Positions 1-50,900 of a DNA stretch of 64,000 bases are shown here, one piece after another. The position numbers and the translations under genes were made by a program. The notes under the pieces were generated by a model, which saw only the letters and a list, made by a program, of their open reading frames with translations, made no database searches and was not told where the DNA came from. This DNA comes from Deltaproteobacteria bacterium TL4 (lineage in GTDB: Bacteria; SAR324; NAC60-12): the NCBI GenBank assembly GCA_051382335.1, contig JBBCAX010000090.1, positions 2,075-66,074 on the forward strand, given 5' to 3'. The stretch's first letter is position 1. Every line of letters starts with the position of its first letter.

Positions 1-3000
1 ATTACGACTGGGGTTTTCACGGGTGTATTGTGCGTCCATGAGACTCACTAAGAACTGACCTGATTTAAGAAGGGATTACGACGACATTATCCGCGCTACC
101 AACGCCTAATTGGTAGAGGTCTAAGAACTGACCTGATTTAAGAAGGGATTACGACGTTCCTTCGCGAAGTACCGCATTCCGGCCTATGTGGTATACTAAG
201 AACTGACCTGATTTAAGAAGGGATTACGACATTAAGGTGAAGACCTGAGGCGAGGGATAGAATGCATCTAAGAACTGACCTGATTTAAGAAGGGATTACG
301 ACGTAATGACGCGAACGCTTAAGGACCGCATAGTCACCTCTAAGAACTGACCTGATTTAAGAAGGGATTACGACGTTGTAGAGCCCAGTCCCTTGCGGAA
401 CTGGGGTGCTCTTCTAAGAACTGACCTGATTTAAGAAGGGATTACGACAGGGACGGAATGCATAGCATTCTATCCCTGCCTGGGACTAAGAACTGACCTG
501 ATTTAAGAAGGGATTACGACGCGGTTCCCGCTAGAGGTTCCGTTAAGGAACCTCCTTCTAAGAACTGACCTGATTTAAGAAGGGATTACGACGTAACTAC
601 CCTGGCTCCCTGCAGGTCCACTTGGGAGACACTAAGAACTGACCTGATTTAAGAAGGGATTACGACGTTGTAGAGCCCAGTCCCTTGCGGCACTGGGGTG
701 TTCTTCTAAGAACTGACCTGATTTAAGAAGGGATTACGACTCGTTTTTGTGTCAGGATGTCCCACGAAATGTGGGATTCCTAAGAACTGACCTGATTTAA
801 GAAGGGATTACGACTTAGGCCTCCTCGGGGAGGCTGTAGTACTCTACAGCCTCCTAAGAACTGACCTGATTTAAGAAGGGATTACGACCTCAGTAGACGT
901 GTTAGATAACATGGGCTAATTAAAGGCTAAGAACTGACCTGATTTAAGAAGGGATTACGACGATTGCCCAGTTAAGCCCAATTTTGGGCAAAAAAAAGCG
1001 CTAAGAACTGACCTGATTTAAGAAGGGATTACGACCGGAACTGGGGTGGTTTTGCACGTATCTCTGATCCATGAGCTAAGAACTGACCTGATTTAAGAAG
1101 GGATTACGACTTGATAAGGTCAGGACCGTTAGCAAAGATCCAATCCAACTAAGAACTGACCTGATTTAAGAAGGGATTACGACACGTAGTTGCGGCTACC
1201 TAAGTAGCCGCTGTAGACTTGCTAAGAACTGACCTGATTTAAGAAGGGATTACGATACGGCTCGGCCCGCCGTTCTTCGCCATTTACATACACTAAGAAC
1301 TGACCTGATTTAAGAAGGGATTACGATAAGCTTGCGGACCGTCGTTGGTACCCGTACACCTTACTAAGAACTGACCTGATTTAAGAAGGGATTACGATCA
1401 TTTCAGAACATTTGCCAGGCCTCAATGGACGTGTTAGACTAAGAACTGACCTGATTTAAGAAGGGATTACGATGCTTAATGACGACATACTGACGGCTTG
1501 ATTGGGGCTTGCTAAGAACTGACCTGATTTAAGAAGGGATTACGATTCGTAAACGTATGCTGGGTCCATGAGGCTTAGAGCTTGCTAAGAACTGACCTGA
1601 TTTAAGAAGGGATTACGATCGGAACTAGGGTGGTCGTAAACGTATGCAGGGTCCATCTAAGAACTGACCTGATTTAAGAAGGGATTACGATTTTTCCCTG
1701 GTTACCTCAATCATGGTAGAAACATCTTCTAAGAACTGACCTGATTTAAGAAGGGATTACGATATCACGGTGAAGACCCCGTCAGAGGACGGGTAGAACG
1801 CTCTAAGAACTGACCTGATTTAAGAAGGGATTACGATTTGCCCAGTCCCTTGCGGAACTAGGGTGGTCGTAAACGTCTAAGAACTGACCTGATTTAAGAA
1901 GGGATTACGATCTTTCCCTGTTGAATGGGAAAGCTGAGGCAAGCTTCCCCTAAGAACTGACCTGATTTAAGAAGGGATTACGATCAGGTCACCTGCTTCC
2001 TTGAGTCGTTTCGTCACCTGGACTAAGAACTGACCTGATTTAAGAAGGGATTACGATTAGGCTCTAGTTGTAGAGCCTATACGCTTTTTTTTGCCGGCTA
2101 AGAACTGACCTGATTTAAGAAGGGATTACGATGTTAATTAACTCAAGCTGAGCGTCTTGCATAAGCCTAACCTAAGAACTGACCTGATTTAAGAAGGGAT
2201 TACGATGCTACGTAGTTAGGTTCCATGAGGCTTAGAGCCTGCCTCTAAGAACTGACCTGATTTAAGAAGGGATTACGATTTCGCGGACGCACACTCCAAT
2301 GTAATCTCTTACATTATCCCTAAGAACTGACCTGATTTAAGAAGGGATTACGATCCTAGACAGTTAAGCGGTTCCCGCTAGAGGTTCCGTTCTAAGAACT
2401 GACCTGATTTAAGAAGGGATTACGATCTACCCCCTCGTTCGCCCTATTTGACTTTCCCTGTTGAATCTAAGAACTGACCTGATTTAAGAAGGGATTACGA
2501 TCAGTCCCTTGCGGAACTGGGATAGTTTATCACGTAGTCGCTAAGAACTGACCTGATTTAAGAAGGGATTACGATATCGCGTAGTCGGGTTCCATGAGGC
2601 TTAGCGCCTGCTCTAAGAACTGACCTGATTTAAGAAGGGATTACGATTCGTTCGCCCTATTGGACTTCCCCTGCTGGATGGGGAACTAAGAACTGACCTG
2701 ATTTAAGAAGGGATTACGATCATTCCACCCGTCCTTGTGTCCCTAAGGACACAATTCTCCTAAGAACTGACCTGATTTAAGAAGGGATTACGATCGGCCC
2801 GCTGTTCTTCGCCATTCACATACATGGCGAAGCTAAGAACTGACCTGATTTAAGAAGGGATTACGATATGATGGAGCCAAGCCCGTTGTCACGTAACCAC
2901 TGATGCTAAGAACTGACCTGATTTAAGAAGGGATTACGATCGATTCTTGTCAGTATGCGAGCATTTAAGCTCGACATACTTCTAAGAACTGACCTGATTT

Positions 3001-6000
3001 AAGAAGGGATTACGATCGACGTGTTAGATAACATGGTCCAATCAAAGGAGCTGCACTAAGAACTGACCTGATTTAAGAAGGGATTACGATCGGCCCGCTG
3101 TTCTTTGCCATTTATGTACATGGCGAAGGTCTAAGAACTGACCTGATTTAAGAAGGGATTACGATACTAAGGCACGGGTACCGATTTGCGCCAGGGTAAC
3201 TACCTAAGAACTGACCTGATTTAAGAAGGGATTACGATCGGACGCACATTTCAATGTAATCCCTTGCGTTATCCATACTAAGAACTGACCTGATTTAAGA
3301 AGGGATTACGATTAGCATACTAGTACGGACATTATCCGCGCTACCAATGCCCTAAGAACTGACCTGATTTAAGAAGGGATTACGATTGGGATAGTTTCGG
3401 ACGTATTCCACGTCCATGAAGCTTAGCTAAGAACTGACCTGATTTAAGAAGGGATTACGATCCGTAAGTTCTTCTCCTGATTTCATGTCCATTTTAGTCT
3501 AAGAACTGACCTGATTTAAGAAGGGATTACGATATTAGCGTGATATACCCCTAAATGGGGGGTTACACGCCTAAGAACTGACCTGATTTAAGAAGGGATT
3601 ACGATTCTACAACTAGAGCCTATACGCTTTTTGCCGGTTAACTAAGAACTGACCTGATTTAAGAAGGGATTACGATCCATGAGACTCAAAGCGAGTCTCA
3701 TGGAAACAGGAACTAAGAACTGACCTGATTTAAGAAGGGATTACGATTCAATGTAATCCCTTGCATTATCCATAATATTCTCCGCTAAGAACTGACCTGA
3801 TTTAAGAAGGGATTACGATATTGCCCCATTAAGCCCAAAATTGGGCAAAAAAAAAGCGCTAAGAACTGACCTGATTTAAGAAGGGATTACGATCCTCTAA
3901 GAAGAGGCTGTGTTGTGCCACAGCCTCTTCTTGCTAAGAACTGACCTGATTTAAGAAGGGATTACGATCTTCGTTTAGTCCGTCTCATATGCTACTCCTA
4001 GCGATATTCTAAGAACTGACCTGATTTAAGAAGGGATTACGATTCTAAGAAGAGGCTGTGTTGTGCCACAGCCTCTTCTTCTAAGAACTGACCTGATTTA
4101 AGAAGGGATTACGATCTTTTACTTTGGGTTTTTGTTAGCATGGCGTTTCCTTTTCTAAGAACTGACCTGATTTAAGAAGGGATTACGATGAATACATTGC
4201 TTGACGCACTCGTCAATGTAATCCCTTGCTAAGAACTGACCTGATTTAAGAAGGGATTACGATGTAGGCTTTAGCATCTCTGCTGTGCATGAACGCTGAT
4301 TTCCTAAGAACTGACCTGATTTAAGAAGGGATTACGATTGACTCCAGAGCTGTAGGCCCCTCAAGTAGCATCTCGAAACTAAGAACTGACCTGATTTAAG
4401 AAGGGATTACGATGCTGTGTTGTGCCACAGCCTCCTCTTCTAGTTGTAACGCTAAGAACTGACCTGATTTAAGAAGGGATTACGATTACACGGCGAAGGA
4501 AGCGGACCGTCTCTGGTACCCATACGCTAAGAACTGACCTGATTTAAGAAGGGATTACGATTTGCGCGTATACGCTTTTTGCCAGTTAAGGTACTGGCAA
4601 ACCTAAGAACTGACCTGATTTAAGAAGGGATTACGATTTGCCCCATTTTTTTACCCATTTTGGGCAAAAAAAAGCGTACTAAGAACTGACCTGATTTAAG
4701 AAGGGATTACGATCTAAACACTCTGCCAGTGCTGCCACAGTCTCGCTATGCTAAGAACTGACCTGATTTAAGAAGGGATTACGATCCTTTTTGACGCAAT
4801 CGTCAATGTAATCCCTTGCATTATCTAAGAACTGACCTGATTTAAGAAGGGATTACGATATTGCCACATATCCCATAATATTCTCCTATGGAATGTTCTA
4901 AGAACTGACCTGATTTAAGAAGGGATTACGATTCCGCATACTAGTACGGACATTATCCGCGCTACCAACCTAAGAACTGACCTGATTTAAGAAGGGATTA
5001 CGATTACATGGCGAAGGTTGCGGACCGTCTTTGGTACCCATACTAAGAACTGACCTGATTTAAGAAGGGATTACGATTTGCCATACGCCATCTGAGGATT
5101 CCCAATAGGTATTATGCTAAGAACTGACCTGATTTAAGAAGGGATTACGATAATAGGCCCTATAATGCTTAAGGCCGCTTTTAAGACTCTAAGAACTGAC
5201 CTGATTTAAGAAGGGATTACGATACGCTCTACCACTAGAGTGTATATGCTTTTTGCCAGTTACTAAGAACTGACCTGATTTAAGAAGGGATTACGATATA
5301 TGCTACTCCTAGCGATATTAGCGTGATATACCCCCTAAGAACTGACCTGATTTAAGAAGGGATTACGATAAGGTGAAGATCCCGTCAGAGGACGGATAGA
5401 ATGCATACTAAGAACTGACCTGATTTAAGAAGGGATTACGATAAGTCTCATGGAAAAGGAGATTCCCTTTTTGACGCAATCGCTAAGAACTGACCTGATT
5501 TAAGAAGGGATTACGATAAAGGCGTCTTCCTCTTTCTGTGAAAGAGGAGGAACATAACTAAGAACTGACCTGATTTAAGAAGGGATTACGATGAGGGAAT
5601 CAGGGACACTGCCTTCATTTCACGCAGTATCTCTAAGAACTGACCTGATTTAAGAAGGGATTACGATCCTGCCGCCTTGCAGGTCTACCTGAGAGACAAT
5701 CGTCCCTCTAAGAACTGACCTGATTTAAGAAGGGATTACGATCCTTGGAGAGGCCGGTTGTAAGGGAGAAACTCTTCAGTTCTAAGAACTGACCTGATTT
5801 AAGAAGGGATTACGATTCCGCATACTACTACGGACATTATCCGCGCTACCAATGCTAAGAACTGACCTGATTTAAGAAGGGATTACGATCTTTTCGCGTC
5901 AGTGCCTAGTGTCACAATGTGACAATCTAAGAACTGACCTGATTTAAGAAGGGATTACGATCAGTGTCTAGTGTCACAATGTGACAATAGACTATGTCAA

Positions 6001-9000
6001 CTAAGAACTGACCTGATTTAAGAAGGGATTACGATTCGAACGAGTCCACGCCGATTAGTGTCCCTAGGGACACTAAGAACTGACCTGATTTAAGAAGGGA
6101 TTACGATCATGGAAAATGAGACTCCCCTCCTGACGCAATCGTCAATCTAAGAACTGACCTGATTTAAGAAGGGATTACGATAAGATTAGGCGATTCCTGC
6201 TGTACCGTATAGGCCTAGACTAAGAACTGACCTGATTTAAGAAGGGATTACGATCGGCACTGGGGTTGCTTAGGACGTAGTTTGCGTCCATGAGCTAAGA
6301 ACTGACCTGATTTAAGAAGGGATTACGATATGAACTCGAACGAGTCCACGCCGATTAGTGTCCCTAGGCTAAGAACTGACCTGATTTAAGAAGGGATTAC
6401 GATCGAGGGAGCACAGTTGTGCTCAGAATCGCTACATATTCCCTAAGAACTGACCTGATTTAAGAAGGGATTACGACCCGCTCTTCTAAAAGTTGTTTAG
6501 TGTCTGGGTGCCCCACCCAAGAACTGACCTGATTTAAGAAGGGATTACGACCTTGCAGACCTTCTTTGGTAGCCGTATGCCTTAATCAACCAAGAACTGA
6601 CCTGATTTAAGAAGGGATTACGACTTTTGTCTTTTTGTAAGGATCTAGGGGTTTTTCTTACAGCCAAGAACTGACCTGATTTAAGAAGGGATTACGACAT
6701 GGCTTGCAACCGTGTGATATCGCTACAAATAGAGATTTCCAAGAACTGACCTGATTTAAGAAGGGATTACGACGGTGGATTTCTGCTGTGCCTTAATGGT
6801 CTTGACAGTTCCAAGAACTGACCTGATTTAAGAAGGGATTACGACCACACCCCTTTTTCAGAGGTTCTGAGAGTTTTGGAGTATGCCAAGAACTGACCTG
6901 ATTTAAGAAGGGATTACGACATGAACTCATACGAGTCCACCCCGGTTAGTGTCCCAACCAAGAACTGACCTGATTTAAGAAGGGATTACGACCCATATCT
7001 CTACCTCCCCAGATAAAGTTAACAATAATTCCAAGAACTGACCTGATTTAAGAAGGGATTACGACTTGAAATTCGAAGTATGCAATGCCTTGATTGCCAT
7101 TGACCCAAGAACTGACCTGATTTAAGAAGGGATTACGACTTCCTCTCGATACAACCTGAATACCCCCATTGGAGGTATTCCAAGAACTGACCTGATTTAA
7201 GAAGGGATTACGACTTCTTCACTTGAGAGGAGTACCCATTGCAGGGTATCCTCATCCAAGAACTGACCTGATTTAAGAAGGGATTACGACCTCCCGGAAT
7301 CTGGCGCTACATGGCCTTCATCATAGCGAACCAAGAACTGACCTGATTTAAGAAGGGATTACGACTACGAATTCGCTTGCTCTGCATTTATATTTTCCAT
7401 TTTACCAAGAACTGACCTGATTTAAGAAGGGATTACGACAGCAGGGTCACAAACCTGCTCCCCTGCAGGTCTACCCTCCAAGAACTGACCTGATTTAAGA
7501 AGGGATTACGACCATCACACTACCCCTTTCGGGTAACTTCGTTTAGTCCGTCCAAGAACTGACCTGATTTAAGAAGGGATTACGACCGGCCATAACAGCC
7601 GATTTATACTCTTCATTGTTGGAACCAAGAACTGACCTGATTTAAGAAGGGATTACGACAAAGGCAACACAGTGGTGCTCAATATAGCTACAAATTCCCC
7701 AAGAACTGACCTGATTTAAGAAGGGATTACGACCGGGTTAGACACGCTTGATGTGTTAAGGGAGTTTATCCCCCAAGAACTGACCTGATTTAAGAAGGGA
7801 TTACGACCATCGAAATTCGTATAGTCGCTCCATTGAGCGCCTTTTGCGACCAAGAACTGACCTGATTTAAGAAGGGATTACGACCATCTCCTCCACCGAA
7901 AACGCATCGTAAAGATGCGATTCGGCCAAGAACTGACCTGATTTAAGAAGGGATTACGACAGGGATGATCGGACATTCTTCTCCAAGTTACTGGTTAAGC
8001 CAAGAACTGACCTGATTTAAGAAGGGATTACGACGCAGTACCCTAGCGTTTGGACGGTATACGTTCCGTCCAACCAAGAACTGACCTGATTTAAGAAGGG
8101 ATTACGACTTCCTCGCTGGATAGGAGTACCCATTGCAGGGTATCCTCCAAGAACTGACCTGATTTAAGAAGGGATTACGACAGTCGGTTTGTGACTAGGA
8201 CGTCTTCAGAAGAAGGCGCACCAAGAACTGACCTGATTTAAGAAGGGATTACGACTCTAGGTCTTGCTCCTCACCCTCGATGCTTCCCACAACCAAGAAC
8301 TGACCTGATTTAAGAAGGGATTACGACTCAGGGCATTTCTCCAGCGTTTGGACGGAATAAGTTCCGCCAAGAACTGACCTGATTTAAGAAGGGATTACGA
8401 CATCATAAAGATGCGATTCGGTGTCTGAAATTACAAGCACATCCAAGAACTGACCTGATTTAAGAAGGGATTACGACCCATTACTGGGGTCATCTCCTCG
8501 CTGGTGAGGAGTACCCATCCAAGAACTGACCTGATTTAAGAAGGGATTACGACCGTAACTGTCACGACTTGGTTTTCACGAACAGACTTGACCCAAGAAC
8601 TGACCTGATTTAAGAAGGGATTACGACTTTTATTAGCCCTGCGGCTAATAAAACCGCGGGCTCTGCCCAAGAACTGACCTGATTTAAGAAGGGATTACGA
8701 CAGGCCGACAAAATTGTTACTTCCTAAGTAGCAACCGTACCAAGAACTGACCTGATTTAAGAAGGGATTACGACGTTCTGGAGCCTGCTCTGAAGCCCCT
8801 GTTTCGCCCTGACCAAGAACTGACCTGATTTAAGAAGGGATTACGACCCTTGTTGACTTCCCTTGTTGAATAGGGACACACAGACACCAAGAACTGACCT
8901 GATTTAAGAAGGGATTACGACCTGGTTTCACGAACAGACTAGACCTATAAGGTCTAGTCCAAGAACTGACCTGATTTAAGAAGGGATTACGACCCGGATA

Positions 9001-11714
9001 TGATTTCCAGGTCTTCAACGATTAAGGTGAAGACCCAAGAACTGACCTGATTTAAGAAGGGATTACGACGTTTCCCAAAGGATTCCATTATACATATCCC
9101 TCCTTAACCAAGAACTGACCTGATTTAAGAAGGGATTACGACTTAATTTCATGGTTCGTGTACTGTAGCACACCTCGCAAGTCCAAGAACTGACCTGATT
9201 TAAGAAGGGATTACGACTCTGCATAACCCTTTCTCCATTAGGGGTTTTTTGGGCAAGCCAAGAACTGACCTGATTTAAGAAGGGATTACGACGCCCGCAT
9301 TGCTTCACCATTCACATACATGGTGAAGCTGCCAAGAACTGACCTGATTTAAGAAGGGATTACGACATAGGGTGTTCAGCCTCATTTAGAAAGACCAGTA
9401 CTTCCAAGAACTGACCTGATTTAAGAAGGGATTACGACAATTCGGCCATAACAGCCGATTTATAAGCCGATTTATATCCAAGAACTGACCTGATTTAAGA
9501 AGGGATTACGACAGCATAGATATTCCTATCAAATGCCCCGATATGGTCCTTGCCAAGAACTGACCTGATTTAAGAAGGGATTACGACAAATTCCATAAAT
9601 CTCCTTTATGGCAAGTTTTTTGGGCAACCAAGAACTGACCTGATTTAAGAAGGGATTACGACAATAGGAGCCGTACACTACACTGGACCCCATTACAGGG
9701 CCAAGAACTGACCTGATTTAAGAAGGGATTACGACGAGCTTTTTTCTGCCACAATCTGGACGCCCCAGCGTCCCCAAGAACTGACCTGATTTAAGAAGGG
9801 ATTACGACATAGCACTCTACCCCCGCTTGAGTACCTAAGCTCTCAACCAAGAACTGACCTGATTTAAGAAGGGATTACGACCCGCCCGCCTAGCTTCACC
9901 ATGTATGTACATGGTGAAACTGCCAAGAACTGACCTGATTTAAGAAGGGATTACGACAATTCACTCCTGAAGGTTTCAATGCTTACCACATCGACCAAGA
10001 ACTGACCTGATTTAAGAAGGGATTACGACCGGTTACAGTAGCTGGGACTGCTACTTTGTATGTGTCCGACCAAGAACTGACCTGATTTAAGAAGGGATTA
10101 CGACGTCGTTAACCCTTTAGTGAACTTGCGTACCTGCGCCAAGTCCAAGAACTGACCTGATTTAAGAAGGGATTACGACGCTCTGTCAGAAAACCCTCTT
10201 CACGTATAAATTTGCCTCCAAGAACTGACCTGATTTAAGAAGGGATTACGACAGCTTCTCGTTAGTGTTGGGATTACGGTAGGTCCCCTGCCAAGAACTG
10301 ACCTGATTTAAGAAGGGATTACGACTCCGGAATTGTTCAGCTTGGGTAGCAATCCAATTCAGGACCAAGAACTGACCTGATTTAAGAAGGGATTACGACC
10401 CAGGAGTAAGACATTGGTATAAATCCTGATCGCAAGACCAAGAACTGACCTGATTTAAGAAGGGATTACGACGCTCCGCCCAGATTTCTACCCTGAAATA
10501 ATTTTGTTCAGCCAAGAACTGACCTGATTTAAGAAGGGATTACGACGTCTTAGACCTCTGTTATATTTTTAACAGATTTTTGTTCCAAGAACTGACCTGA
10601 TTTAAGAAGGGATTACGACATCTACTAAGTCCCTCACGTCTGTGAGGGAAGTGCATTTTCCAAGAACTGACCTGATTTAAGAAGGGATTACGACAAGCAA
10701 TTCGCGTCAATACACGCACGCTTAAATTCGCCCCAAGAACTGACCTGATTTAAGAAGGGATTACGACGGGTTCCAAGACGCAATGCTTATTGTAAGGGTT
10801 TCCATACCAAGAACTGACCTGATTTAAGAAGGGATTACGACCCTAACTTTCAGGCCGGCAAACAGTTTGGAAGGAGCCGGGATCCAAGAACTGACCTGAT
10901 TTAAGAAGGGATTACGACCCTCTGAACTCCATCACCCTGTCTTCTTTAATAAGGAGACCCAAGAACTGACCTGATTTAAGAAGGGATTACGACGTGCCTT
11001 CATTCCAGCCGTTGTGGCCAGAAACTACTCGACCAAGAACTGACCTGATTTAAGAAGGGATTACGACCTTCTCCATAATCGATGTTATCTTCATTTTAGT
11101 CTCTCCCAAGAACTGACCTGATTTAAGAAGGGATTACGACGATTTAATATTATCACGTCTCCTGAGAGCATGTCTTCTGCCAAGAACTGACCTGATTTAA
11201 GAAGGGATTACGACTTATGACTTATCTCAGGTCATTTAGTTATTTTCCCCAAACCAAGAACTGACCTGATTTAAGAAGGGATTACGACTAAATGTCTTGT
11301 ACTCGGGTCTTGATAGTGCTTACAGCCAAGAACTGACCTGATTTAAGAAGGGATTACGACCTTACCACATTTCGAGTAATCTGACGATTTGACAACACAT
11401 CCAAGAACTGACCTGATTTAAGAAGGGATTACGACATGTGTATCATTTCTTGGATATACCTCCCCTTGGAGGCCGAGAACTGACCTGATTTAAGAAGGGA
11501 TTACGACTAATAAGTTTATATAATTATAAATGTTTTCTCTTTATTCCGAGAACTGACCTGATTTAAGAAGGGATTACGACTGCTCAGTAGTATACTCAAC
11601 CACTGAGCACCCTTTTTACCGAGAACTGACCTGATTTAAGAAGAGATTACGACCGGACGTCCTCGCGGTCCGTCCAGAAGTTCAGAGCATCCCCGAGAAC
11701 TGACCTGATTTAAG
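1..11714 (+). CRISPR. Large CRISPR array (~160 repeat-spacer units, 35-bp repeat C(T/C)(A/G)AGAACTGACCTGATTTAAGAAGGGATTACGA(C/T), spacers ~36-41 bp), type III-like; begins before the window
   Basis: Repeat recurs every ~73 bp from position 1 (partial) to a mutated repeat at 11619 and a truncated one at 11693-11714. The degenerate right end and the ATTACGAC 3' end (8-nt handle-like) imply + strand transcription with the leader to the left. Unit count is estimated from length/period. No cas genes in the window. Confidence 0.98.
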
Positions 11715-11737
11715 TAAGACGGGACAGCCATCATTTC

Positions 11738-11826
11738 AGTAGGTTGGGTAGAGCGGTAGCGAAACCCAACATCCAGGCAGTAATGTCCGTTTTTCGTTGG
11801 GTTTCGCTACGCTCTACCCAACCTAC
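11738..11826. repeat. REP doublet (REPIN-like), GTAG-family palindromic element
   Basis: GTAGGTTGGGTAGAGCGGTAGCGAAACCCAAC followed by its near-perfect inverted copy GTTGGGTTTCGCTACGCTCTACCCAACCTAC. Confidence 0.75.
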
Positions 11827-11849
11827 GTTTTTGTCCCACTTTAGACCGG

Positions 11850-11999
11850 TAGCCCTTTTTTTAACCACGAAAAACACTAAAAACACGAAATAAAACCTGC
11901 AAAATAGGGTTTCACGGAGGAATTCATTTATTAAAAAATCATTTATTTCGTGTTTTTCGTGTTTTTCTTGGTTAATTTTCAAACCACCTGCACAGCTCG
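11850..11999. mobile_element. MITE-like element, copy 1 (left terminal repeat missing)
   Basis: Near-identical to 19245-19390; internal inverted AACCACGAAAAACAC.../GTGTTTTTCGTG...GGTT arms; ends in ACCTGCACAGCTCG. Confidence 0.7.
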
Positions 12000-12019
12000 A
12001 AAAATATCAAAATCTTTTT

Positions 12020-14141
12020 TTGTGGAGGGGGTCTATTCGTAGTAAATATGCCAACCTTGAACCAGTTTCCAAAATCATTCGTAGCGTCAATGAATACTAT
12101 TATCTGACTCAGGGACATTGGGATGACCATGAAATGCACTATTTCCGTTCTGCCTTGATGGAAATTGGGATGGATCAAAAGGTTCCCCTTCAGGCAAACC
12201 AGTTTTTTGAGGCAATCCTTCAGGATCGAAGCCAGATTGATAAATTATTTGAAGGCATTGGCTCTGAAAACATCATGCCCATTCCTCCCCAACAACGGTT
12301 TTATCAGCCCTTGCTCAAAGGGCTTGAACTGGTGCAGGAGCATGAAAACATGAATCTGGAAACCCTGACCCATTCCTTGAGGGATGAACTGGAAATGGAT
12401 TCCGGCGCTGAACTCAATGCTCTGGACTTTGCCTCTGACCTTCTGGCTTCCCGCAGAATGGCGGACCGGCGAAAAAACGCCTGGACTGGGGAGAAGCAAC
12501 AGACCTTGAGAGAAAGGTATTTGGAACAACTGCAAGCCTGTGCTCAAATTTGCGAGCAACATCACCTGGAAGCCACCTTTCTGAAAAAAAATAAATCTTC
12601 TCAAAGAGGAAATCGCCCGTTTTGCCATCATCGTCCCTCTGATGGGTAAAACGTCTGCGGGAAAGAGCCGTTTATTGAACACCTGGCTCGAAAAAGAGAT
12701 CCTGGGTGTGGATACCTTGCCTGAAACCACCATCGCTACTGAATTGCGGTATGGGATGAAGGAAAAGTTGATCCTGCATTACCTCAACGAAAAGGTGGAA
12801 GAACGAGAACTGGGGGATTTGAAAACACTCAGTAAAAATACAAAAGACATTCTTTTTGCTGAACTCTATCTGAATAACATCAAGCTCAAGCACCGACCGT
12901 CATTGGTTCTGGTGGACATGCCGGGGATTGGCTCCAATTACGAAAACCATACCAAAGCCCTTGTGAACTATGTCCAAAGGGGGCACTACTACGTTCTGGT
13001 GCTGGATGTGCAGAATTATTCCGATGCGGATGTCCTCAACTTTATCAGGGAACTGACCTCCTACAAACAAAATTTTTCCGCAATCATCACCAAAGTGGCA
13101 CGCAAATCCAAAGATCAACTTGCGGGTATCAAACAGATTGTTCAGGAGCGTTGTCTGCAACTGACAAAAAATCAGGTGGAAGTGGGGTTGGTGGAGTGTG
13201 ATACCCCGGATATTCGAGATTTTGAAGTCCATCTGGGAGTGATTTTCAGCAAGGAAGAATCTATCTTCCAAACTCAATTTGCGCACCCAATGGAGGAGCT
13301 GTTCCAGGGGCTTCAACAGTATTTCAACCGCTTATTGGCTGGAGACAACCTGTCAGGGCGTGAAGTTGACGAGAAAATTGCGGAATGTAGCAAAAACCAG
13401 AAAAAACTGGAGCGAGACCTCCATGAAATGTTGGAAACATTGAATTATCAACTTCAGGAGGTTGCGACCGAAAGAGTGGTCAACGAGGTACAAAACGCTC
13501 TCAACGCAAATCTGTCTGCGCTGGTCAGTGCCTCCGAAAGTGGAAGTACCACCTTGAACAAGACTCTCACCAACATCCTTCGTCTCCTTATTTTGAAAAG
13601 TGTTCAGCGAGAGGCCTCCTCCGAAATTGAAAAAATTTCAGGACAACTGGAGAGCCTCCTCCAGAATGCTTTTCCTGACTTCCATTTTAACCTGACTCCC
13701 TCCTATGAGATTGGCAAAAATGGAGCCATTGCCGGAGGCCTCACAGGCGCAGCGGCGGGAAGCGCCTGGTTGTTGGGAAGTGCGGTTTTGGTTCCTATTG
13801 CAGGAATAACCCTCCCGGTTTTAGGTCTGATTGCGGCAATCACCGGATATGGAATCCGTGCCCAAAAAAAGGCGCTGGAGGCTCAAGTTCGTGATGAAAT
13901 TATTCCTCATGCGGTGGCTCAGTCCAGAACGGCCATCAGGGAATGTATGACCCAAATCCAAAAGGACATTGCCTCGAAGATCACAAAGGAACTGCAACAG
14001 AAAAAAGCTGAATACGAAAAGGCTTTGGAAACCCTGAAGTCCCAAAAAATAGAGTCTCAACAAACCTATAACCAAAACAAAGTGAAGTGGGAGGCGGCGT
14101 TGGTTCAATTGTCAGGGTTTGCAGAACAAATCAGACTGTGA
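12020..14141 (+). pseudogene. Dynamin-like GTPase (LeoA-like, Eleos-type), split by a +1 frameshift in an A8 tract at 12584-12591
   Basis: ORF 12642-14141 has G1 GKTSAGKS, G2 PETTIATELRY, G3 DMPG, G4 TKVA and a glycine-rich hydrophobic hairpin. Removing one A joins ORF 12020-12649 in frame via KKINLLKEEIARFAIIVPLMGKTSAGKS. Confidence 0.75.
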
Positions 14142-14234
14142 AATTGAAGGGGCAATTCCCTCTTTTATTATCCGGAATATTCATGATACAACTTGAGAGT
14201 CTTATTTTTGAAAAACCTTAAATGGAGATGCCGT

Positions 14235-14456
14235 ATGGTACTACCAGAAACTGTAACACTGGATGAATTCAAATTATTTCCAATTGAAGAAATTTTTGTA
14301 TCCATTTCCACGTTGCAAAAAAGTGTTAATGTTAAACTCCCTGATGGAAAAGAAGTCCTGATTCAGTCGAAACCTCAACTCAAACCGTTGCCTATCTTGC
14401 AAAGCTATATCCCACAAGGATGGAAAGAGGGCATTTACAGAAAAACTACCGTGTAA
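14235..14456 (+). CDS. Small hypothetical protein, possible orphan antitoxin
   Basis: GGAG RBS before ATG 14235; 73 aa; C-terminal LKPLPILQSYIPQGWKEGIY resembles tails of small PIN-toxin antitoxins (recollection, unverified). Confidence 0.45.
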   Translation: MVLPETVTLDEFKLFPIEEIFVSISTLQKSVNVKLPDGKEVLIQSKPQLKPLPILQSYIPQGWKEGIYRKTTV

Positions 14457-14457
14457 A

Positions 14458-14545
14458 ATCCCCTGAAAGGGGTTCCTATACCAGCCCAGGGCATCGCCCT
14501 GGGGCATGAATGATTCATAAACATTAGCCCTGTAAGGGCGTCCTA
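14458..14545. repeat. REP-like palindromes left of the Y1 transposase
   Basis: CCCTGAAAGGGG...AGCCCAGGGCATCGCCCTGGG...AGCCCTGTAAGGGCG hairpin units. Confidence 0.75.
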
Positions 14546-14562
14546 TAAGAAAGGTGGTCATT

Positions 14563-15015
14563 GTGTCCCAATCTTTATCAAAAATTCTCCTCCATCTGGT
14601 GTTCAGTACCAAGAACCGAATCGATATGATTCCAACCGAGCTTTTGCACGAGGTACACGCTTATTTAGCGACAGTCTGCCGTACTCAGGAGAGTGAGGCT
14701 TTTCGTGTGGGTGGAACGGGAAACCATGTCCATATCGCCTGTACCTTGCCTCGAACCTTAACGGTGAGCAAATTGCTTGAAGAAATCAAAAAATCATCCT
14801 CTCTCTGGATAAAACAACGAGATGCACGTTGTTCCGATTTTTCATGGCAAGCGGGATATGGAGCGTTCTCTTTGGGACAGTCTCAGTTAGATAGTCTCAT
14901 TCGTTACATAGACACTCAAAGAGAACATCATCAGAAAATGACGTTTCAGGAAGAATTATTGGAACTTCTTCGCAAATATAACGTGGCCTATGATGAAAAA
15001 TATTTGTGGGATTGA
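14563..15015 (+). mobile_element. tnpA: IS200/IS605-family Y1 (HUH) transposase, REP-associated (RAYT-like)
   Basis: HLVFSTKNR, HUH motif NHVHI, FSWQAGYGAFS, catalytic Y in YIDTQREHH; flanked by palindromic REPs. Confidence 0.9.
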
Positions 15016-15024
15016 ATCCCTACA

Positions 15025-15925
15025 GAACGCCCTTACAGAACCCAGGGCTTCACCCTGGGCTGGTATAGAAACCCCTTTCAGGGGATTAAAGGTGAAAACC
15101 TGAAGGGGATTAAAGGTGAAAACCCTGAAGGGGTTGAATATACCAGCCTGGGGCATCGCCCCAGGTGATAGAATTCGCCCAAGAGATTAGCCCTGTAAGG
15201 GCGTAATATCCATTGCAATAGAACGCCCTTACAGGGCTGTGTTTGTTTGGGGTTGCTGGTTCCCAGGGCTTCACCCTGGGCTGGGATAGGAACCCCTTTC
15301 AGGGGATTAAAGTTGAAAACCTGAAGGGGATTAAAGGTGAAAACCCTGAAGGGGATTAAAGGTGAAAACCCTGAAGGGGATTAAAGGTAAAACCCTGAAG
15401 GGGATTAAAGGTGAAAACCCTGAAGGGGATTAAAGGTGAAAACCCTGAAGGGGATTAAAGGTGAAAACCCTGAAGGGGATTAAAGGTGAAAACCCTGAAG
15501 GGGATTAAAGGTGAAAACCCTGAAGGGGATTAAAGTTGAAAACCCTGAAGGGGATTAAAGGTGAAAACCCTGAAGGGGATTAAAGTTGAAAACCCTGAAG
15601 GGGATTAAAGGTGAAAACCCTGAAGGGGATTAAAGGTGAAAACCTGAAGGGGATTAAAGGTGAAAACCTGAAGGGGATTAAAGGTGAAAACCTGAAGGGG
15701 ATTAAAGGTGAAAACCTGAAGGGGATTAAAGGTGAAAACCCTGAAGGGGTTGAATATACCAGCCTGGGGCATCGCCCCAGGATTAGAATTCATCCGAGAA
15801 CTTAGCCCTGTAAGGGCGTAATATCCATTGTAATATAACGCCCTTACAGGGCTGTGTTTGTTGGTGTTTGCTGCTTCCCAGGGCGTTGCCCTGGGCTGGG
15901 ATAGGAACCCCTTTCAGGGGATCAA
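15025..15925. repeat. REP cluster with a ~20-copy 21/22-bp tandem repeat GGGGATTAAAGGTGAAAACC(C)TGAA (15300-15750)
   Basis: Direct reading; a ~200-bp REP module (15120-15310) is duplicated at 15740-15920. Confidence 0.9.
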
Positions 15926-16058
15926 AAGTGCAATCCCTCGTGGTTGCCCTTTTTGACAATCACATACATTTTTTGACATTCACATAGAGAGGAACCTCTT
16001 TCAGGGGATTTTAAGGGCAATCTGGTTGCCCTTTTTGACATTCACATAGAGAAGAAAA

Positions 16059-44931: not shown

Positions 44932-47900
44932 CTATCTACTTTTTAAAGGATCCTCCGGCGCAATCTGAAGAACCACAACGGGTCGAGCCTGATTGTCGTA
45001 AATGGGGCAAAAAATTCCATTACCTTCCCGTTCCGCATCCCATTGATCTATCGCTTTAAGCATCTTGTCAAACGCGGCCATTTGATCGGCGTCGATTGGT
45101 ACTTCCGTTTGACGGTCAGACTCCCCCTCACCGTCGGTGTCCTTTTCAAAAACCAGTTTTTCTATTTGATGAGAAGGCGCACTGAAGGCGTCTTTGACAC
45201 GAATGGAATCTTGAGAGCCTTCAATCTGCATGATCATATCCTGAGCCATTTTGGAAATTCTCAGATCCTCTGGAGAAATTTGGGAACCAAAATGAATCAC
45301 ATCTTTTCCTTCATACTCCTCGATGACCAACTCACCAGCACCTCGATGAAATTCATAGAGGTCATTGACGGGGTCTGCCTCACTTTCTGATTCGGGTTCT
45401 GTATCATCAGTATCCGATGGAGTGTCGCTGTTTGTATCAATTAAAACTTCTTCGACGCCATCATCCATTTCCGTGAGATATTCCGTCGGAATTAAACTAT
45501 CCGTAAAATAATCCTCAAACTCCTCTGCCGTCAAAAGTTCCTGAGCAAAAACGAGATTGGGAATAGGCCGTTCCGTCTGTGAAAACCAGTCCGCGATTTC
45601 AAGACCGTCCTCTTGTCCAATAAAACCCAGTTTCAATAAATCACCCTCTCGCCGTACCTGTAGGTCCGCAGGAGTTATACCATCCCCAAATAATAAGACA
45701 TCCCCTTGAAGAGCTGAAATTTGCGCATATAAAGGATGGGTCTCCGTAAGGGAAATCTGTTCAATGGTAAAAGGAAATTCATCTGAAGGCGTTTTGTGAA
45801 AATAGTAAATCTGATCTCCTGCTTTATCAACCAAATGAGCGTTTGAAGTTTCAGCACTCGTTTCATCAGTTGTATTTGGTTTTGCTTCTGTTGAGCCTGT
45901 TTCTTGATCGATTTCAGTAGAGTCTGTTGTTTCTCCAGAATCGGAATGAATCAAAAACGTTTCAGGTGCGGCTTTTGCTGCATTGGGGCGGATATTCTGG
46001 ATCACAAAACTTTCTACCTCACTCGCACCCATTATTTCCGGTTCTCTTTCTTCGGAAAACGTCATAAAATAATATGCGGGGAGTTCTCCAGTATACCAAT
46101 TTTTTATGGTGACACCACCTCCTTGTCGCATGGTCACGACTAGATCTTGTCCCTCTCTTGAAAAACTTAAGTCCGATCGTTGCGCTGCATATTCCCTTTC
46201 AGCAAAGTAGACAATATGGCCCGTTCCCTCAATGCCAAATTCACTCAGAAAAGGATTCGTGGTATCAGTTCCAGTATCAATGATGGTATGATGACCCCCT
46301 CCTGGTGCAATCATGTAGACATCACCACCTTCTCCACCCATTAAAATATCATCACCGTAACCTCCCGATATTATATTAGTATTATCATCCCCTTCAATTA
46401 GATCATTGAGAAAAGTACCTGAAAGCATACCCTGACGATCCAATTGCTCTGCGGTAATATGGGTGTCTAATTGTTCTATGACAGGACTTAGATCAAGGGC
46501 AGAACCGTCGTTTAACAAAATTTGTTCAATATGATTTGTTCTTGATAATACCCAATCATTTATTATAACCATGTCATTCGTTCCAATTCTGTGAATCACC
46601 AGGTTTTTTTCTTCGATTCGTATGTCCAAATCATCAGAACTGATCCCCTCTCCAAATCTTAGTGTGTCATTGCCCCCATACTCATAGATGGTGTATTTCC
46701 CTGCCCCTTTGTTAAATACAAAATTGTCATCGTCTTCAGTACCTTCCTTTCTAGCTATCGTAGTAGAATGATCCTCAAGCCATTTGGCTTTCTGAATATT
46801 GATTTCAGTTTCAATCTGATCCGCTGGAATGAGGGTATTATCGCTGAAGACCAAATCCATTGAATTTTTATCATTAAACCATGACCTTAAAGTGACTTGA
46901 TCTTCTGTTCCTCGAATCTGAAGTATCAAGTTCTTATCTTTCTGAATGTATTCGATATCTGTTTTTGAAATATCAGAACCAAATTTTAACTGATTGGTTT
47001 CATAGTTAAGGTCATATAAATTAATGGTATCTTTGCCATCACCTCTGTTGAATAAATAAGTATCCTCCCCCTCTTCGTCAATATAGGTATCATCGCCAAG
47101 TCCGCCATTTAAAACATCGTCACCCTGTCTTCCTAAAATAAAATCATTTCCCTCTGAACCTGAAATGAGGTCCGCTTCGTCATGTCCTTCAAGAAAATCA
47201 TCTTGGGCGGTCCCTTCATATAATGTGATGTGATTGTTTATCGTTTCATTATTCCAACGGGTTCCATCATTAAAAATGAAAGCACTCACTTGAAAAGAAG
47301 CGCTGGCTCCCCAGAGTGTAAATGTGATTTGATCGGTTGTGTCTTTGATTTTGAGAACAAGATCTTTTCCGTGTCTTTCCAAAATCAAATCGTCAGGGCC
47401 GATTCCTTCACCTAGGTTCACGCTCCCGTCAGTTGAAAGCTTATGGAAATTTTTATAAGTTTGTTCCCCCTGTTCCCTGTCGAGACTATAGGTAGGATTG
47501 TCTTCAATGACTTCGCCAGGGTTAAGCCATTCTTGTATTTCTTCATAGGCTATCGTTTGCCCATTAAATATGTTCTGGGCGATGATGATATTAAAGACGG
47601 GAGGGTTTTCTTGAAACCAGTTTTTGATGGTAGCTCCACCGGAATGATTAGTGATGGTAATTACAAGGTCATTCTCATTTCTTATTAAAGAAAGATCATC
47701 AGGAGTAAGGGGAATCTTTTCATAATCTGAAGAGTTGTTACTATCTTTGAACATAAAACAAAGCGTATTTCCAAAAGGAATAGTTCCAGAACGTGTCACT
47801 GTTTGGATGGATATTCCCGTCTCAATGATGGTATGGTGACCGCCCTCAGGATCAATGAAATACATATCGCCACCTTCGCCGCCGATCAAGGTATCTTGAC

Positions 47901-50900
47901 CTTCTCCTCCATAAAGGTCGTCTTCTCCCTCTCCACCTTCCAGAATATCATCCCCTACACCACTTTTTAAACTGTCACTAGAATCACTTCCAACTATATG
48001 TTGATTTTCAATCTCACGTATGGACTGCATATCCACAGGGGTTCCATCGTTGAGCAGAATTTGTTCTATTTGATTTTGCTTGCTTTGAAACCAGTTATAA
48101 AACACAACTTGATCCTGTGACTCTGCTATAGAAAGTACTAAATGCTCTCCTTGCTGAGCAAAACTCAAATCATCAGCATTAATGCCTGCTCCCAGTTTGA
48201 AAACATCAGCACTTCCTCCGGAATCCGTTATCGTATCACTGCCGTCACCCGAGTTATAGAGGTAAGTATCATTCCCTTTTCCGCCACTTATCCGGTCATC
48301 TCCTTTTCCTCCGCGAATGGTGTCATTGCCTCGTCCTCCTTCCAGATATTCACTTTCATCAGTTCCTTCGATTTGTTGACTCTGACAAAAAATGGCATTA
48401 ATGGATTCTTGGGAAACGCTGGAACCATCCTTAAAACGAATCTGCTCAATCGGAAACTGTATCGCGTTTCCACCTCTGACTAATATTCGATCGGTAGAAT
48501 CTTTGATTTGAAGAAGTAGGTCTTCACCTTCCATTTTGATTTCCAGGTTGGTTTCAGTGATCCCTTCACCAAACTGAAGGACATCCTGCTCCCCATCAAA
48601 ATCCTGAATGATATCCTGTCCATCTCCCAAATTGAAATGATAAGTATCGGAGCCTGAATTTCCCACAAGCAAATCATTTCCAGATCCTCCTGTCAGCGTA
48701 TCGTCTCCCGCCATCCCAGCCAGCGTATCATTACCGCCGAGGCCATCCAATTCATTGGCTTCCGCGTTTCCTATCATATCATCAGAAGATTCCGTTGCTT
48801 CGAAAATCCATTGCGGGTCGATTTCATCCACGGTGAATTCTGTTCCATCGGCAAACTTGATGCGCGCTAAATTTACCCAGCCAATTTGATCACTGGAATC
48901 CTTGATTCGAAGGAGAGAATAACCTGGTTTTTTTATCCATATCAAATCATCGTAGGTGATGCCTTCTCCAAATTGTAGCGTGCATTGTCCTTCGAAGTCA
49001 TAAATGCTGTCTTGTCCATCTCCTCGGTTGAATCGATAAACATCATTCCCTAGCATTCCGTAGAGAACATCATTCCCTTTTCCTCCTATGAGCGTATCAT
49101 TACCGGCCAAACCAAAGATCTCGTCATCTCCACCTAATCCACTAATTTCTTCAGAAAGTGCTGTCCCATAAATTTCTTCTGACTCATCGGAACTGTAAAT
49201 GGAAGTATTTTCAAAAATCATCTCTGGATTCAACTCAGTTCCATCTGAAAACTCCAATTTTGCCAAATGAGCTGAAGTATAAACTACACCGGAAACCAGA
49301 GTGATTTGATCTGAAGAATCTTTCAGGCGGATGATTATATCACGTCCCTTTTGCTCAAACTCTAAACTGTCAGGACTAATCCCTTCTCCAAACTTGATGC
49401 TATCTTTCTTCGTTCTATCACTGGAATAAAGTTCTATTCTATCTTGTCCATCACCCCTATTAAAGATATATGTGTCTTGTCCATCTCCTCCTGTTAATGT
49501 ATCATTTCCTTTTCCACCCGTTAACAAGTCATCGCCGCCGTTGCCCTCAATCGTGTCATTCCCGTCGAATCCTGAGATAACGTTATCAAATAAATTTCCC
49601 AAGAGGGTGTCGTCATTGTCTGTTGCCTCAAAGATGATTTGAGCCATAATGTCTTCAGTGCTCAAAACCTGAGTGCTTGAGTGAAAGGTGATTTGTTTGA
49701 GTTGCGCTCGACTGTCTTCATTCCAATTGAGCAGTGTGAGTTGATCCGTTGTCCCTGAAATTTTTATGATTAAATCATTCCCGATTTGTACAAACTCCAA
49801 ATCTTCCGGAGCGATTTCTTCTCCAAAGTGCAGGGTGTCTTCAGGGGTGTTCACATTATATTGATTGGAGGATTTAAAAATTTTAAATAGGTCGAGTTCC
49901 AATGTATCCTGACCATCGCCCCTGTTAAAAATGTAGGTATCCCTTCCTTCATTTCCATGTAACTGGTCGTTTCCTGTCCCACCAACAAGAATATCATTCC
50001 CCTCTCCTCCATCAATTACATCATCGCCACTATCGCCCTGCAAATGATCGTCCGAAAAACCTCCTTTAATAGTGTCGTTTCCACCTGATCCATAAATTTG
50101 AATAGGATTCAAAACTCCCCAAGAAAGATCATCATCTCCGTCCGTTCCTTCCCAGAGCAAGTGTTGCTCCATTTGCTCGGGTGTTAATGTCTGGTCAGAA
50201 AAAACCACTTGCGATAGACGGTTGGAATCATGTTTAAACCAATCGCTAAGGATAACCTGATCCGCCGTTTCTTTGAAACGTATTAACAAGTCATCAGCCT
50301 TCACTAAAAATTCTACTTCTGAAAAATTTACAGCGTCAAAATTCAGTTTGTCATTGGGTTCCGCTTGAATGGTGTCTTGACCATCTCCACGCTTGAATAC
50401 ATAAACATCGGAACCGTCATTTCCTTCCAATAAATCATTGCCTTCTCCTCCAATCAATGTGTCGTCTCCTTCTCCCCCGCTCAGGACATCATCCCCTGCG
50501 TCACCATTCAAAAGGTCATCGCCTTCAGCTCCTGTTATCGTATCTGAACCTCCCAACCCTGACAGTTCGTTGGCTTCAGAATCTCCATTAATAAAATCAT
50601 CAGTATCTCCAATAACTAATGAAACTAAAGGGGTATAAGATTCTTGAGAAACAACGGTTCCGTCCTGAAATTTTATATCTATCTTTTTAGAATGAGTGAC
50701 CCAATCCTTGATGGTGATTTGATCTTCGCTTTCATTGATTGAAATCACCAAATCCGGACCACGTTGAGTCATTGTCAGATCGTCCTGATTGATGTCATCT
50801 CCAAATTGAATCAAATCCCGTGTTGGGTCATCCAAGGAATACTGGGCTTCAAGAATAACCGTGTCTTGTCCATCCCCACGGTTGAATACGTAGACATTGT

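Follow-up and report, generated by a model that had tools for sequence, protein, structure and literature searches.

Hairpin-rich spacers in a long type III-A CRISPR array of Deltaproteobacteria bacterium TL4 and the DNA element that they may record

When a CRISPR array is filled with spacers that fold into hairpins, does the folding belong to the invader from which the spacers were taken, or to the way in which its DNA was captured? This question is raised by a 64,000-nt stretch of Deltaproteobacteria bacterium TL4 (contig JBBCAX010000090.1, here C90, positions 2075-66074), which was analyzed as a whole and is referred to as the window. A single CRISPR array on the + strand fills window positions 1-11726, with a repeat of 35 nt and parsed spacers of 36-42 nt, and extends 2 kb further to the left, up to the start of C90. 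We parsed 186 spacers on C90, 130 of which start within 375-9921, the interval in which a sequence-only reading of the window had noticed dense stem-loops with compensatory changes and had concluded that the target is conserved at the level of structure. We favor, with moderate confidence, the explanation that a hairpin-dense mobile element made of DNA was resampled again and again by a long type III-A memory array.

Hairpins and paired changes among the spacers

We compared every spacer with 200 dinucleotide shuffles of itself and counted perfect stems with loops of 3-12 nt. The mean minimum free energy of all 186 spacers was -8.26 kcal/mol as compared to -5.91 kcal/mol in the shuffles; the equality with shuffled controls that would have spoken against a structured target was thus not seen, and the spacers were more stable. 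The mean folding z was -1.13 for the + strand and -1.21 for the - strand (Wilcoxon p ~1e-15). Perfect stems were distributed as follows.

Stem of at least 6 bp: 57/186 spacers; 10.6 expected, shuffle maximum 20
Stem of at least 7 bp: 31/186 spacers; 2.7 expected from shuffles
Stem of at least 8 bp: 24/186 spacers; 0.6 expected, shuffle maximum 3
Stem of at least 9 bp: 15/186 spacers; 0.2 expected from shuffles

The 130 spacers within 375-9921 had a z of -1.19 and carried stems of at least 6, 7 and 8 bp in 39, 20 and 16 cases, respectively. As a baseline from the host genome, a stem of at least 8 bp was found in 0.57% of 20,000 random 39-mers, which predicts 1.1 per 186 spacers. When each cluster of overlapping spacers was counted only once, such a stem was present at 16/109 loci relative to 0.6 expected. 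The excess of hairpins in the spacers is real. All hairpins that we examined among those quoted by the sequence-only reading were present, at 3677 (11 bp), ~1192 (8 bp), 8922 (9 bp) and 8035 (8 bp), and so were its variant pairs 2795/9293, 3894/815 and 1912/2648. Four spacers illustrate the range (ORF1 is an open reading frame described below).

3677..3712, + strand: spacer with the 11-bp stem CCATGAGACTC/GAGTCTCATGG; its reverse complement encodes part of ORF1
2795..2832, + strand: spacer with the stem CTTCGCCAT/ATGGCGAAG; its variants (3091-3130, 9293-9331, 9882-9922) show a single change from G-C to A-U and a single G-U
1912..1949, + strand: spacer with the stem TTTCCC/GGGAAA, which reads TTCCCC/GGGGAA in the 2648-2685 variant
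8922..8958, + strand: spacer of the old repeat block with the 9-bp stem ACTAGACCT/AGGTCTAGT

Covariation was assessed on ungapped pairs of variant spacers, and partners slid by 2-3 columns served as the control. Between variants, 391 stem pairs were unchanged, 58 were changed on one side (24 to a mismatch, 18 to G:T and 16 to A:C) and 7 were changed on both sides, 6 of these remaining Watson-Crick. G:T and A:C were equally common among the single changes (18 vs 16), indicating that neither strand is marked as the folded one. Removal of reciprocal counts and of one spurious case left about 4-5 independent compensatory events. They comprised G-C to A-U in the 2795/9293 stems and in spacer pair III_19/III_90, A-U to G-C in the 3677-type hairpin relative to a 2207-type variant, and T-A to C-G in III_22/III_103. 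Consensus folding of the 2795/3091/9293/9882 hairpin gave GC:2 AU:2 for one pair and, for a second one, CG to UG, and the earlier statement that the 2795/9293 exchange turns Ala into Thr while keeping the pair was correct. Consensus folding did not recover the 3677-type hairpin, 3/4 of whose spacers carry the 5' arm only. The rate of change on both sides was 1.5% (7/456) as compared to 1.3% (23/1775) with slid partners. Co-change is therefore no commoner than chance, though the pair is usually kept when co-change occurs. The compensatory changes claimed by the sequence-only reading are thus genuine as individual cases, about 5 events in all, while their rate equals that of the slid controls; selection on structure is suggested, not demonstrated.

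The locus and the element outlined by its spacers

The array is linked to a cas operon on contig C45, at the end of which two cas2 genes are followed by an AT-rich leader of ~230 nt and the first two repeats of the array, the join spanning a contig break. The second spacer on C45 recurs unchanged as the first one on C90, and the assembly was probably broken inside the array, at a spacer that occurs twice. The gene order on C45 is a weak Cas6, Cas10/Csm1, Csm2-Csm5, Card1, a CARF-adenosine deaminase, Cas1, proteins of 921 and 1054 aa, and two Cas2. Csm1 was identified with 628.6 bits (cut-off 170), and Csm2, Csm3 and Csm4 with 44.2, 191.3 and 80.2 bits, respectively, each over its cut-off; Csm5 (34.3 bits) was slightly below its cut-off of 38.3, and the Cas6 match was weak (24 bits vs a cut-off of 58.65). 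The repeat terminates in ATTACGAC, which resembles ATTGCGAC, the sequence that we take to be the type III CRISPR RNA (crRNA) tag. The array and the C45 genes together form a type III-A (Csm) CRISPR-Cas locus. Since the leader lies upstream, the distal repeats are decayed and the 3' repeat end GGGATTACGAC is conserved in the arrays of relatives, the transcribed strand is predicted to be the + strand.

The Cas1 of this locus is a protein of 383 aa with a Cas_Cas1 domain only. No reverse TRANSCRIPTASE (RT) was found with it: none of the 20 RVT_1 matches in the genome lies on C45, C90 or C353, the last being the contig of a second CRISPR-Cas locus. Cas1 genes occur at two loci only, on C45 and C353, and neither is fused or adjacent to an RT. 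A search for RT-Cas1 or cas10 near the array, as had been advised, thus yielded Cas10/Csm1 on C45, while RT-Cas1 is absent from the assembled genome. Two extra genes stand between cas1 and the cas2 pair (L001 12950-18893, G000:C45). The 1054-aa product combines a UvrD-helicase with a PD-(D/E)XK domain and is of the AddA/RecB kind. The 921-aa product gave no Pfam or PDB sequence match, and its language-model features scored 0.99 to ~900-aa PD-(D/E)XK nuclease clusters. By these features, the two proteins resemble an AddAB-like pair that would serve CRISPR adaptation specifically. The locus also carries effectors of the cyclic-oligoadenylate type (L001 4842-5954 and 8120-10300), namely Card1 (CARF and nuclease) and the CARF-adenosine deaminase fusion; such a fusion is also present in the type III-B locus of a relative, genome G015.

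Overlaps among the type III spacers were same-sense in 107 cases and opposite-sense in 4, the latter involving spacers of a long palindrome; shuffled spacers gave 0 overlaps. Clusters of overlapping spacers chain into one stretch of roughly 450-500 nt, the source of about 43/186 spacers. Read in the sense of the target, which is the reverse complement of the spacers, this stretch consists of a non-coding run of hairpins, a GGAGG box with an ATG, and an open frame that we call ORF1. About 19 spacers cover the hairpin-dense non-coding part. It holds five or six hairpins, including a palindrome made of an A-run, a 14-bp stem and a T-run, of the bidirectional-terminator kind; spacers 2058, 3606, 4562, 5224, 962, 3820 and 4638 together outline the palindrome, which is followed by more hairpins. 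Downstream of it, three clusters comprise 25 spacers, of which 24 translate, as reverse complements, to overlapping pieces of the 45-residue N-terminus of ORF1. ORF1 is represented by many variants, with clear conservation of amino acids even where the DNA differs strongly, and the 11-bp hairpin of 3677 lies inside the frame. Two spacers represent the two parts of the stretch.

375..413, + strand: spacer at the downstream end of the spacer-covered ORF1 segment; near-identical variant at 667-705
2058..2097, + strand: spacer from the non-coding stretch upstream of ORF1; 9-bp stem with a T run downstream

Differences between variants gave the same coding sense. Synonymous to non-synonymous counts in the best frame were 101:111 for the target sense and 68:127 for the spacer sense. 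Several variant pairs differed almost purely by synonymous changes in the reverse-complement frame (4:0 in three pairs, 5:1 in two), and all four differences between the overlapping variants 2427 and 2648 (pair III_61/III_64) were synonymous in that frame. The coding sense of the target is the reverse complement of the spacers. For several stems, the earlier placement inside coding frames was thereby confirmed, with the coding sense on the reverse complement. The structured stretch and the region right after the start codon were both heavily sampled (~19 and 24 spacers, respectively), near a putative promoter. We infer from these overlaps the order of the stretches and a single element as the target.

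A complete type I-E operon (Cas3, Cse1, Cse2, Cas7, Cas5, Cas6e, Cas1e, Cas2e) was found on C353 (L016, G000:C353, 87-786 and 969-10173), with 29-nt repeats and an array of 11 spacers of 32 nt, a kind of system directed at double-stranded DNA (dsDNA); the Cse1 match was weak, at 52 bits vs a model cut-off of 576. Spacers of this array overlapped type III spacers in 7/11 cases, with 3 same-sense and 7 opposite-sense overlaps. In three cases, the flank of the type I-E protospacer could be read from an overlapping type III spacer, and these flanks were AAG, AAG and AGG. AAG- and AGG-like flanks are the kind of motif used by type I-E systems, which both acquire spacers from dsDNA and cleave it. 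Because the type I-E array matches the same sequences, on both strands and with such flanks, the target has a dsDNA stage. Two pairs among the type I-E spacers are diverged variants of one protospacer each.

The element itself was sought in several collections. When all spacers were searched against the TL4 genome by blastn-short, the matches outside the array fell solely on the type I-E array of C353, and tblastn of the cluster peptides against the same genome gave nothing below E = 0.2. With window positions 1-8000 as the query, neither the INPHARED phages (50,697 records) nor the PLSDB plasmids (72,556 records) yielded a match. Pattern scans gave 0 matches in IMG/VR and 0 in the GTDB species genomes. 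A JGI metagenome contig (L004) matched the search pattern alone and no other spacer, and was set aside as a chance match. BLAST of the array against 200 relatives and the own genome, a search of low sensitivity in which 2 candidates per genome were scored, returned related arrays and short weak matches only. A codon-degenerate pattern for the start of ORF1, with 2 mismatches allowed, was found in the same 201 genomes only in the array of TL4 itself (5 spacers).

Target composition, capture and other explanations

In the reading that we prefer, the array is a long type III-A memory whose crRNAs would have the sequence of the + strand and be antisense to the transcripts of the element. Over a long period, the host would have encountered this element in many diverged variants. 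We attribute the excess of hairpins mainly to the target, in which perfect inverted repeats of 7-14 bp would be unusually dense, coding sequence included; the reason for this density is likewise inferred. A few of the hairpins in coding sequence would be kept by paired, partly synonymous substitutions. A preference of III-A adaptation for structured DNA and for sites after strong or early promoters would lead to frequent sampling of the ~0.5-kb stretch. Overlapping type III spacers would share one direction because selection favors crRNAs that pair with transcripts.

Three indirect controls bear on target composition vs capture. The spacers of the type I-E array were hairpin-rich too, with stems of at least 7 bp in 3/11 as compared to 0.3 expected. 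Whole hairpins appeared to be captured more often than expected in the raw counts (35/81 spacers vs 21.5), but after removal of the discovering spacer at each of 19 loci the figure was 16/62 vs ~16.5, indicating no preference. The relative G015 has a Cas1 that is 71% identical and a related repeat, and none of its 35 unique spacers had a stem of at least 6 bp; its mean folding z was +0.22 over 44 parsed spacers, duplicates included. Taken together, the hairpin-rich type I-E spacers, the random cutting of hairpins and the hairpin-free relative suggest that the target itself is unusually hairpin-dense, and with respect to the origin of the bias these controls point to target composition rather than to capture.

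Several observations weigh against this reading. The target was absent from all collections searched, and we read its unity, size and nature from the spacers. Neighboring clusters are joined through short overlaps of 8-12 nt. Compensatory change was no more frequent than in the slid controls. Differences between variants showed no overall period of three (distances mod 3 of 0, 1 and 2 in 200, 261 and 219 cases), which can be explained if much of what was sampled is non-coding or fast-changing. The type I-E sample is small (11 spacers), and its contig, C353, stands apart in a draft genome whose contamination is estimated at 2.6%. Finally, G015 is an imperfect control for acquisition bias, having a type III-B effector and no helicase-nuclease pair.

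A small replicon of single-stranded DNA (ssDNA) with a dsDNA form, such as a rolling-circle plasmid, a microvirus or an inovirus, would explain the hairpins by its folded strand, and we regard it as possible, though unlikely. It would fit the observations above and is the form in which the ssDNA replicon of the sequence-only reading could apply. The non-coding stretch resembles a single-strand origin region, a kind of site that is a published III-A hotspot (PMC8860593). Single-sense overlaps would be expected if all genes lay on one strand, and replicons of this kind do have the dsDNA stage that is needed for cross-targeting by type I-E. An estimate from pairwise overlaps gave a sampled target of only a few kb, but this estimate is biased low by the hotspots. 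No Rep, capsid or nick-site sequence was recognizable in the fragments, whose shortness does not allow proteins to be named. Selection for functional type III crRNAs accounts for the one-sense bias equally well, and the balance of G:T and A:C reported above does not single out one folded strand.

That acquisition bias acted alone, on a target that was an ordinary dsDNA phage or plasmid, we consider rather doubtful. An acquisition route that favors structured fragments had been among the proposals of the sequence-only reading, with RT-Cas1 as its example; the preference itself matches a published III-A property, while no RT-Cas1 is involved. The Cas1-Cas2 of S. thermophilus III-A prefers DNA able to form hairpins or other secondary structure (PMC8860593), and in S. 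epidermidis AddAB of the host is reported to enhance acquisition by III-A (PMC8860600). The TL4 locus has an AddA-like protein of its own, with a 921-aa partner that resembles PD-(D/E)XK nuclease clusters, and the sampling was strongly clustered, 43/186 spacers falling within about 0.5 kb. On the other hand, the hairpin-rich type I-E spacers were acquired by a different Cas1-Cas2, the type III spacers are not centered on hairpins and contain whole hairpins at the level of chance once corrected, and G015 lacks such stems in spite of its similar Cas1. Paired substitutions, in part synonymous, also preserved hairpins from one variant to another. In addition, at 0.57% of 39-mers, a typical genome of a few tens of kb is estimated to supply fewer than the 16 distinct loci that have stems of at least 8 bp.

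More speculatively, and in our opinion improbably, the array may be the deep natural record of a long arms race with a so far unsampled family of small replicons, most likely of the ssDNA or rolling-circle type, whose genes and origin-like region would be full of perfect hairpins maintained by compensatory and in part synonymous substitutions. The AddAB-like pair may in that case channel folded DNA to Cas1-Cas2, which would be why the relative without the pair has no hairpin-rich spacers.

It is very improbable that the hairpins are a counter-defence in which folded early transcripts block pairing with the Csm-crRNA complex, as the sequence-only reading had also proposed. The promoter-proximal transcript in which the hairpins lie is indeed the one targeted most heavily, and paired changes that are synonymous maintain some of them, but nothing else was found in favor of the proposal. 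The stems are equally good on both strands, which differ neither in wobble pairs nor in folding energy (z of -1.13 vs -1.21). The host retains many spacers to exactly these stems and keeps adding to them. Moreover, hairpins also fill the non-coding part, for which terminator-like and origin-like roles are simpler.

Least credible of all is an RNA replicon whose spacers were reverse-transcribed from RNA: the dense structure, the one-sense bias and an RNA-sensing type III effector would suit it, but a purely RNA replicon is ruled out by the type I-E spacers on the same sequences, on both strands and flanked by AAG, AAG and AGG, together with the lack of an RT fused to or beside either Cas1, and the single-stranded RNA replicon offered by the sequence-only reading was accordingly not borne out.

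Array history, neighboring features and comparison with known systems

The repeat consensus is C[T/C]AAGAACTGACCTGATTTAAGAAGGGATTACGA[C/T] (35 nt), and its variable positions divide the array into blocks.

6517..11653, + strand: oldest repeat block; repeats start CC and end ...ACGAC, the last three start CCGAG
~11692-11726, + strand: decayed repeat after the oldest block; degenerate last repeats
1222..6403, + strand: middle repeat block; repeats start CT and end ...ACGAT, so that the final base of the presumed 8-nt crRNA tag is altered
1..1183, + strand: leader-side repeat block in the window; repeats start CT and end ...ACGAC

From oldest to newest, the succession is CC...C, a single CT...C at ~6443, CT...T (~71 repeats) and CT...C on the leader side. 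These blocks record the history of the array, in which a change of the last base altered the presumed crRNA tag, a change that was subsequently undone or superseded. Identical spacers were found at C90 27-63 and 393-429, five units apart, and a near-duplicate pair is formed by window 9-47 and its left-hand neighbor in the array, which have the same sequence with a one-base shift. Such duplicates indicate either duplication of a repeat-spacer unit or repeated capture of one site.

At its far end, the array has one more spacer and a decayed terminal repeat (~11654-11726). Just beyond this end lies a long, nearly perfect inverted repeat (window ~11745-11976), for which Rfam gave weak microRNA-like matches only and which may be a miniature inverted-repeat element. 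A search of window 1-16000 against Rfam at E <= 1 revealed nothing credible within the array, the top match being symR with 25.7 bits and an E of 0.32. Further along are an IS200-like Y1 transposase gene (14554-15015) and 25-bp tandem repeat arrays of 2.2 and 18.2 copies (15080-15133 and 15301-15749), with sub-threshold matches to Acido-Lenti-1 RNA at 15121-15165 and 15737-15781; the IS200-like element is placed between two dynamin-like GTPase open reading frames. On the - strand, an open frame of more than 6349 aa occupies 44932-63999 and runs past the window edge. It contains many RTX calcium-binding repeats as well as HCBP-related and BapA-prefix-like domains, and judged by this domain content its product looks like a giant secreted adhesin-like protein. 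In the relative, the locus (L023, G015:C27) has two facing arrays at ~100-2700 (+) and 2770-3440 (-). Their leader-proximal spacers are mutual reverse complements, indicating an inverted duplication of the array together with its leader.

A preference of III-A systems for hairpin-forming, promoter-proximal DNA is already published (PMC8860593, PMC13575424), and the TL4 array, a deep natural example, is in keeping with it. III-A hotspots are located at single-strand origins of rolling-circle plasmids, attenuator leaders, promoters and positions 10-50 bp downstream of start codons (PMC8860593), and a hotspot that depends on transcription lies immediately downstream of an early promoter of a phage, in natural arrays too (PMC13575424). 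The stretch sampled in TL4 looks just like such sites. III-A integration was orientation-independent in the laboratory, and natural arrays were nevertheless functional (PMC8860593). Like S. thermophilus III-A, the TL4 locus has a Cas1-Cas2 without additions to Cas1, and partially palindromic DNA is enriched among its spacers; the two also share hotspots in leader or origin regions with structure and after start codons or early promoters, as well as crRNAs antisense to transcripts (PMC8860593, PMC13575424). The TL4 case differs in that the work on S. thermophilus was done by adaptation assays in the laboratory, with a Gram-positive model, whereas we describe a natural array of at least 186 spacers in a draft genome of uncultured type. 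The target in TL4, moreover, was resampled at the same sites in many diverged variants, the adaptation operon includes the extra AddAB-like pair, and a relative with a 71%-identical Cas1 shows no enrichment.

With RT-Cas1 type III systems, the TL4 locus has a type III effector and one-sense spacers in common; unlike them, it has no RT in or beside Cas1, and its target is also matched by the array of a DNA-targeting type I-E system. That type I and type III arrays of a single genome may share an invader as their target is a general idea. Two arrays with different repeats and with spacers to the same element fit this idea in TL4, where each array has adaptation genes of its own and the type I-E spacers are independent, as they differ in length, derive from both strands and are flanked by a protospacer-adjacent motif.

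The TL4 array reveals no RNA replicon and no new route of acquisition. What it adds to the earlier laboratory assays and S. thermophilus arrays is a comparable III-A pattern in a distant, environmental-type genome and at unusual depth. The type I-E array on the same sequences and the hairpin-free relative suggest that target composition is no less important than the bias of capture. The spacers themselves outline a mobile element that can now be searched for in the source community.

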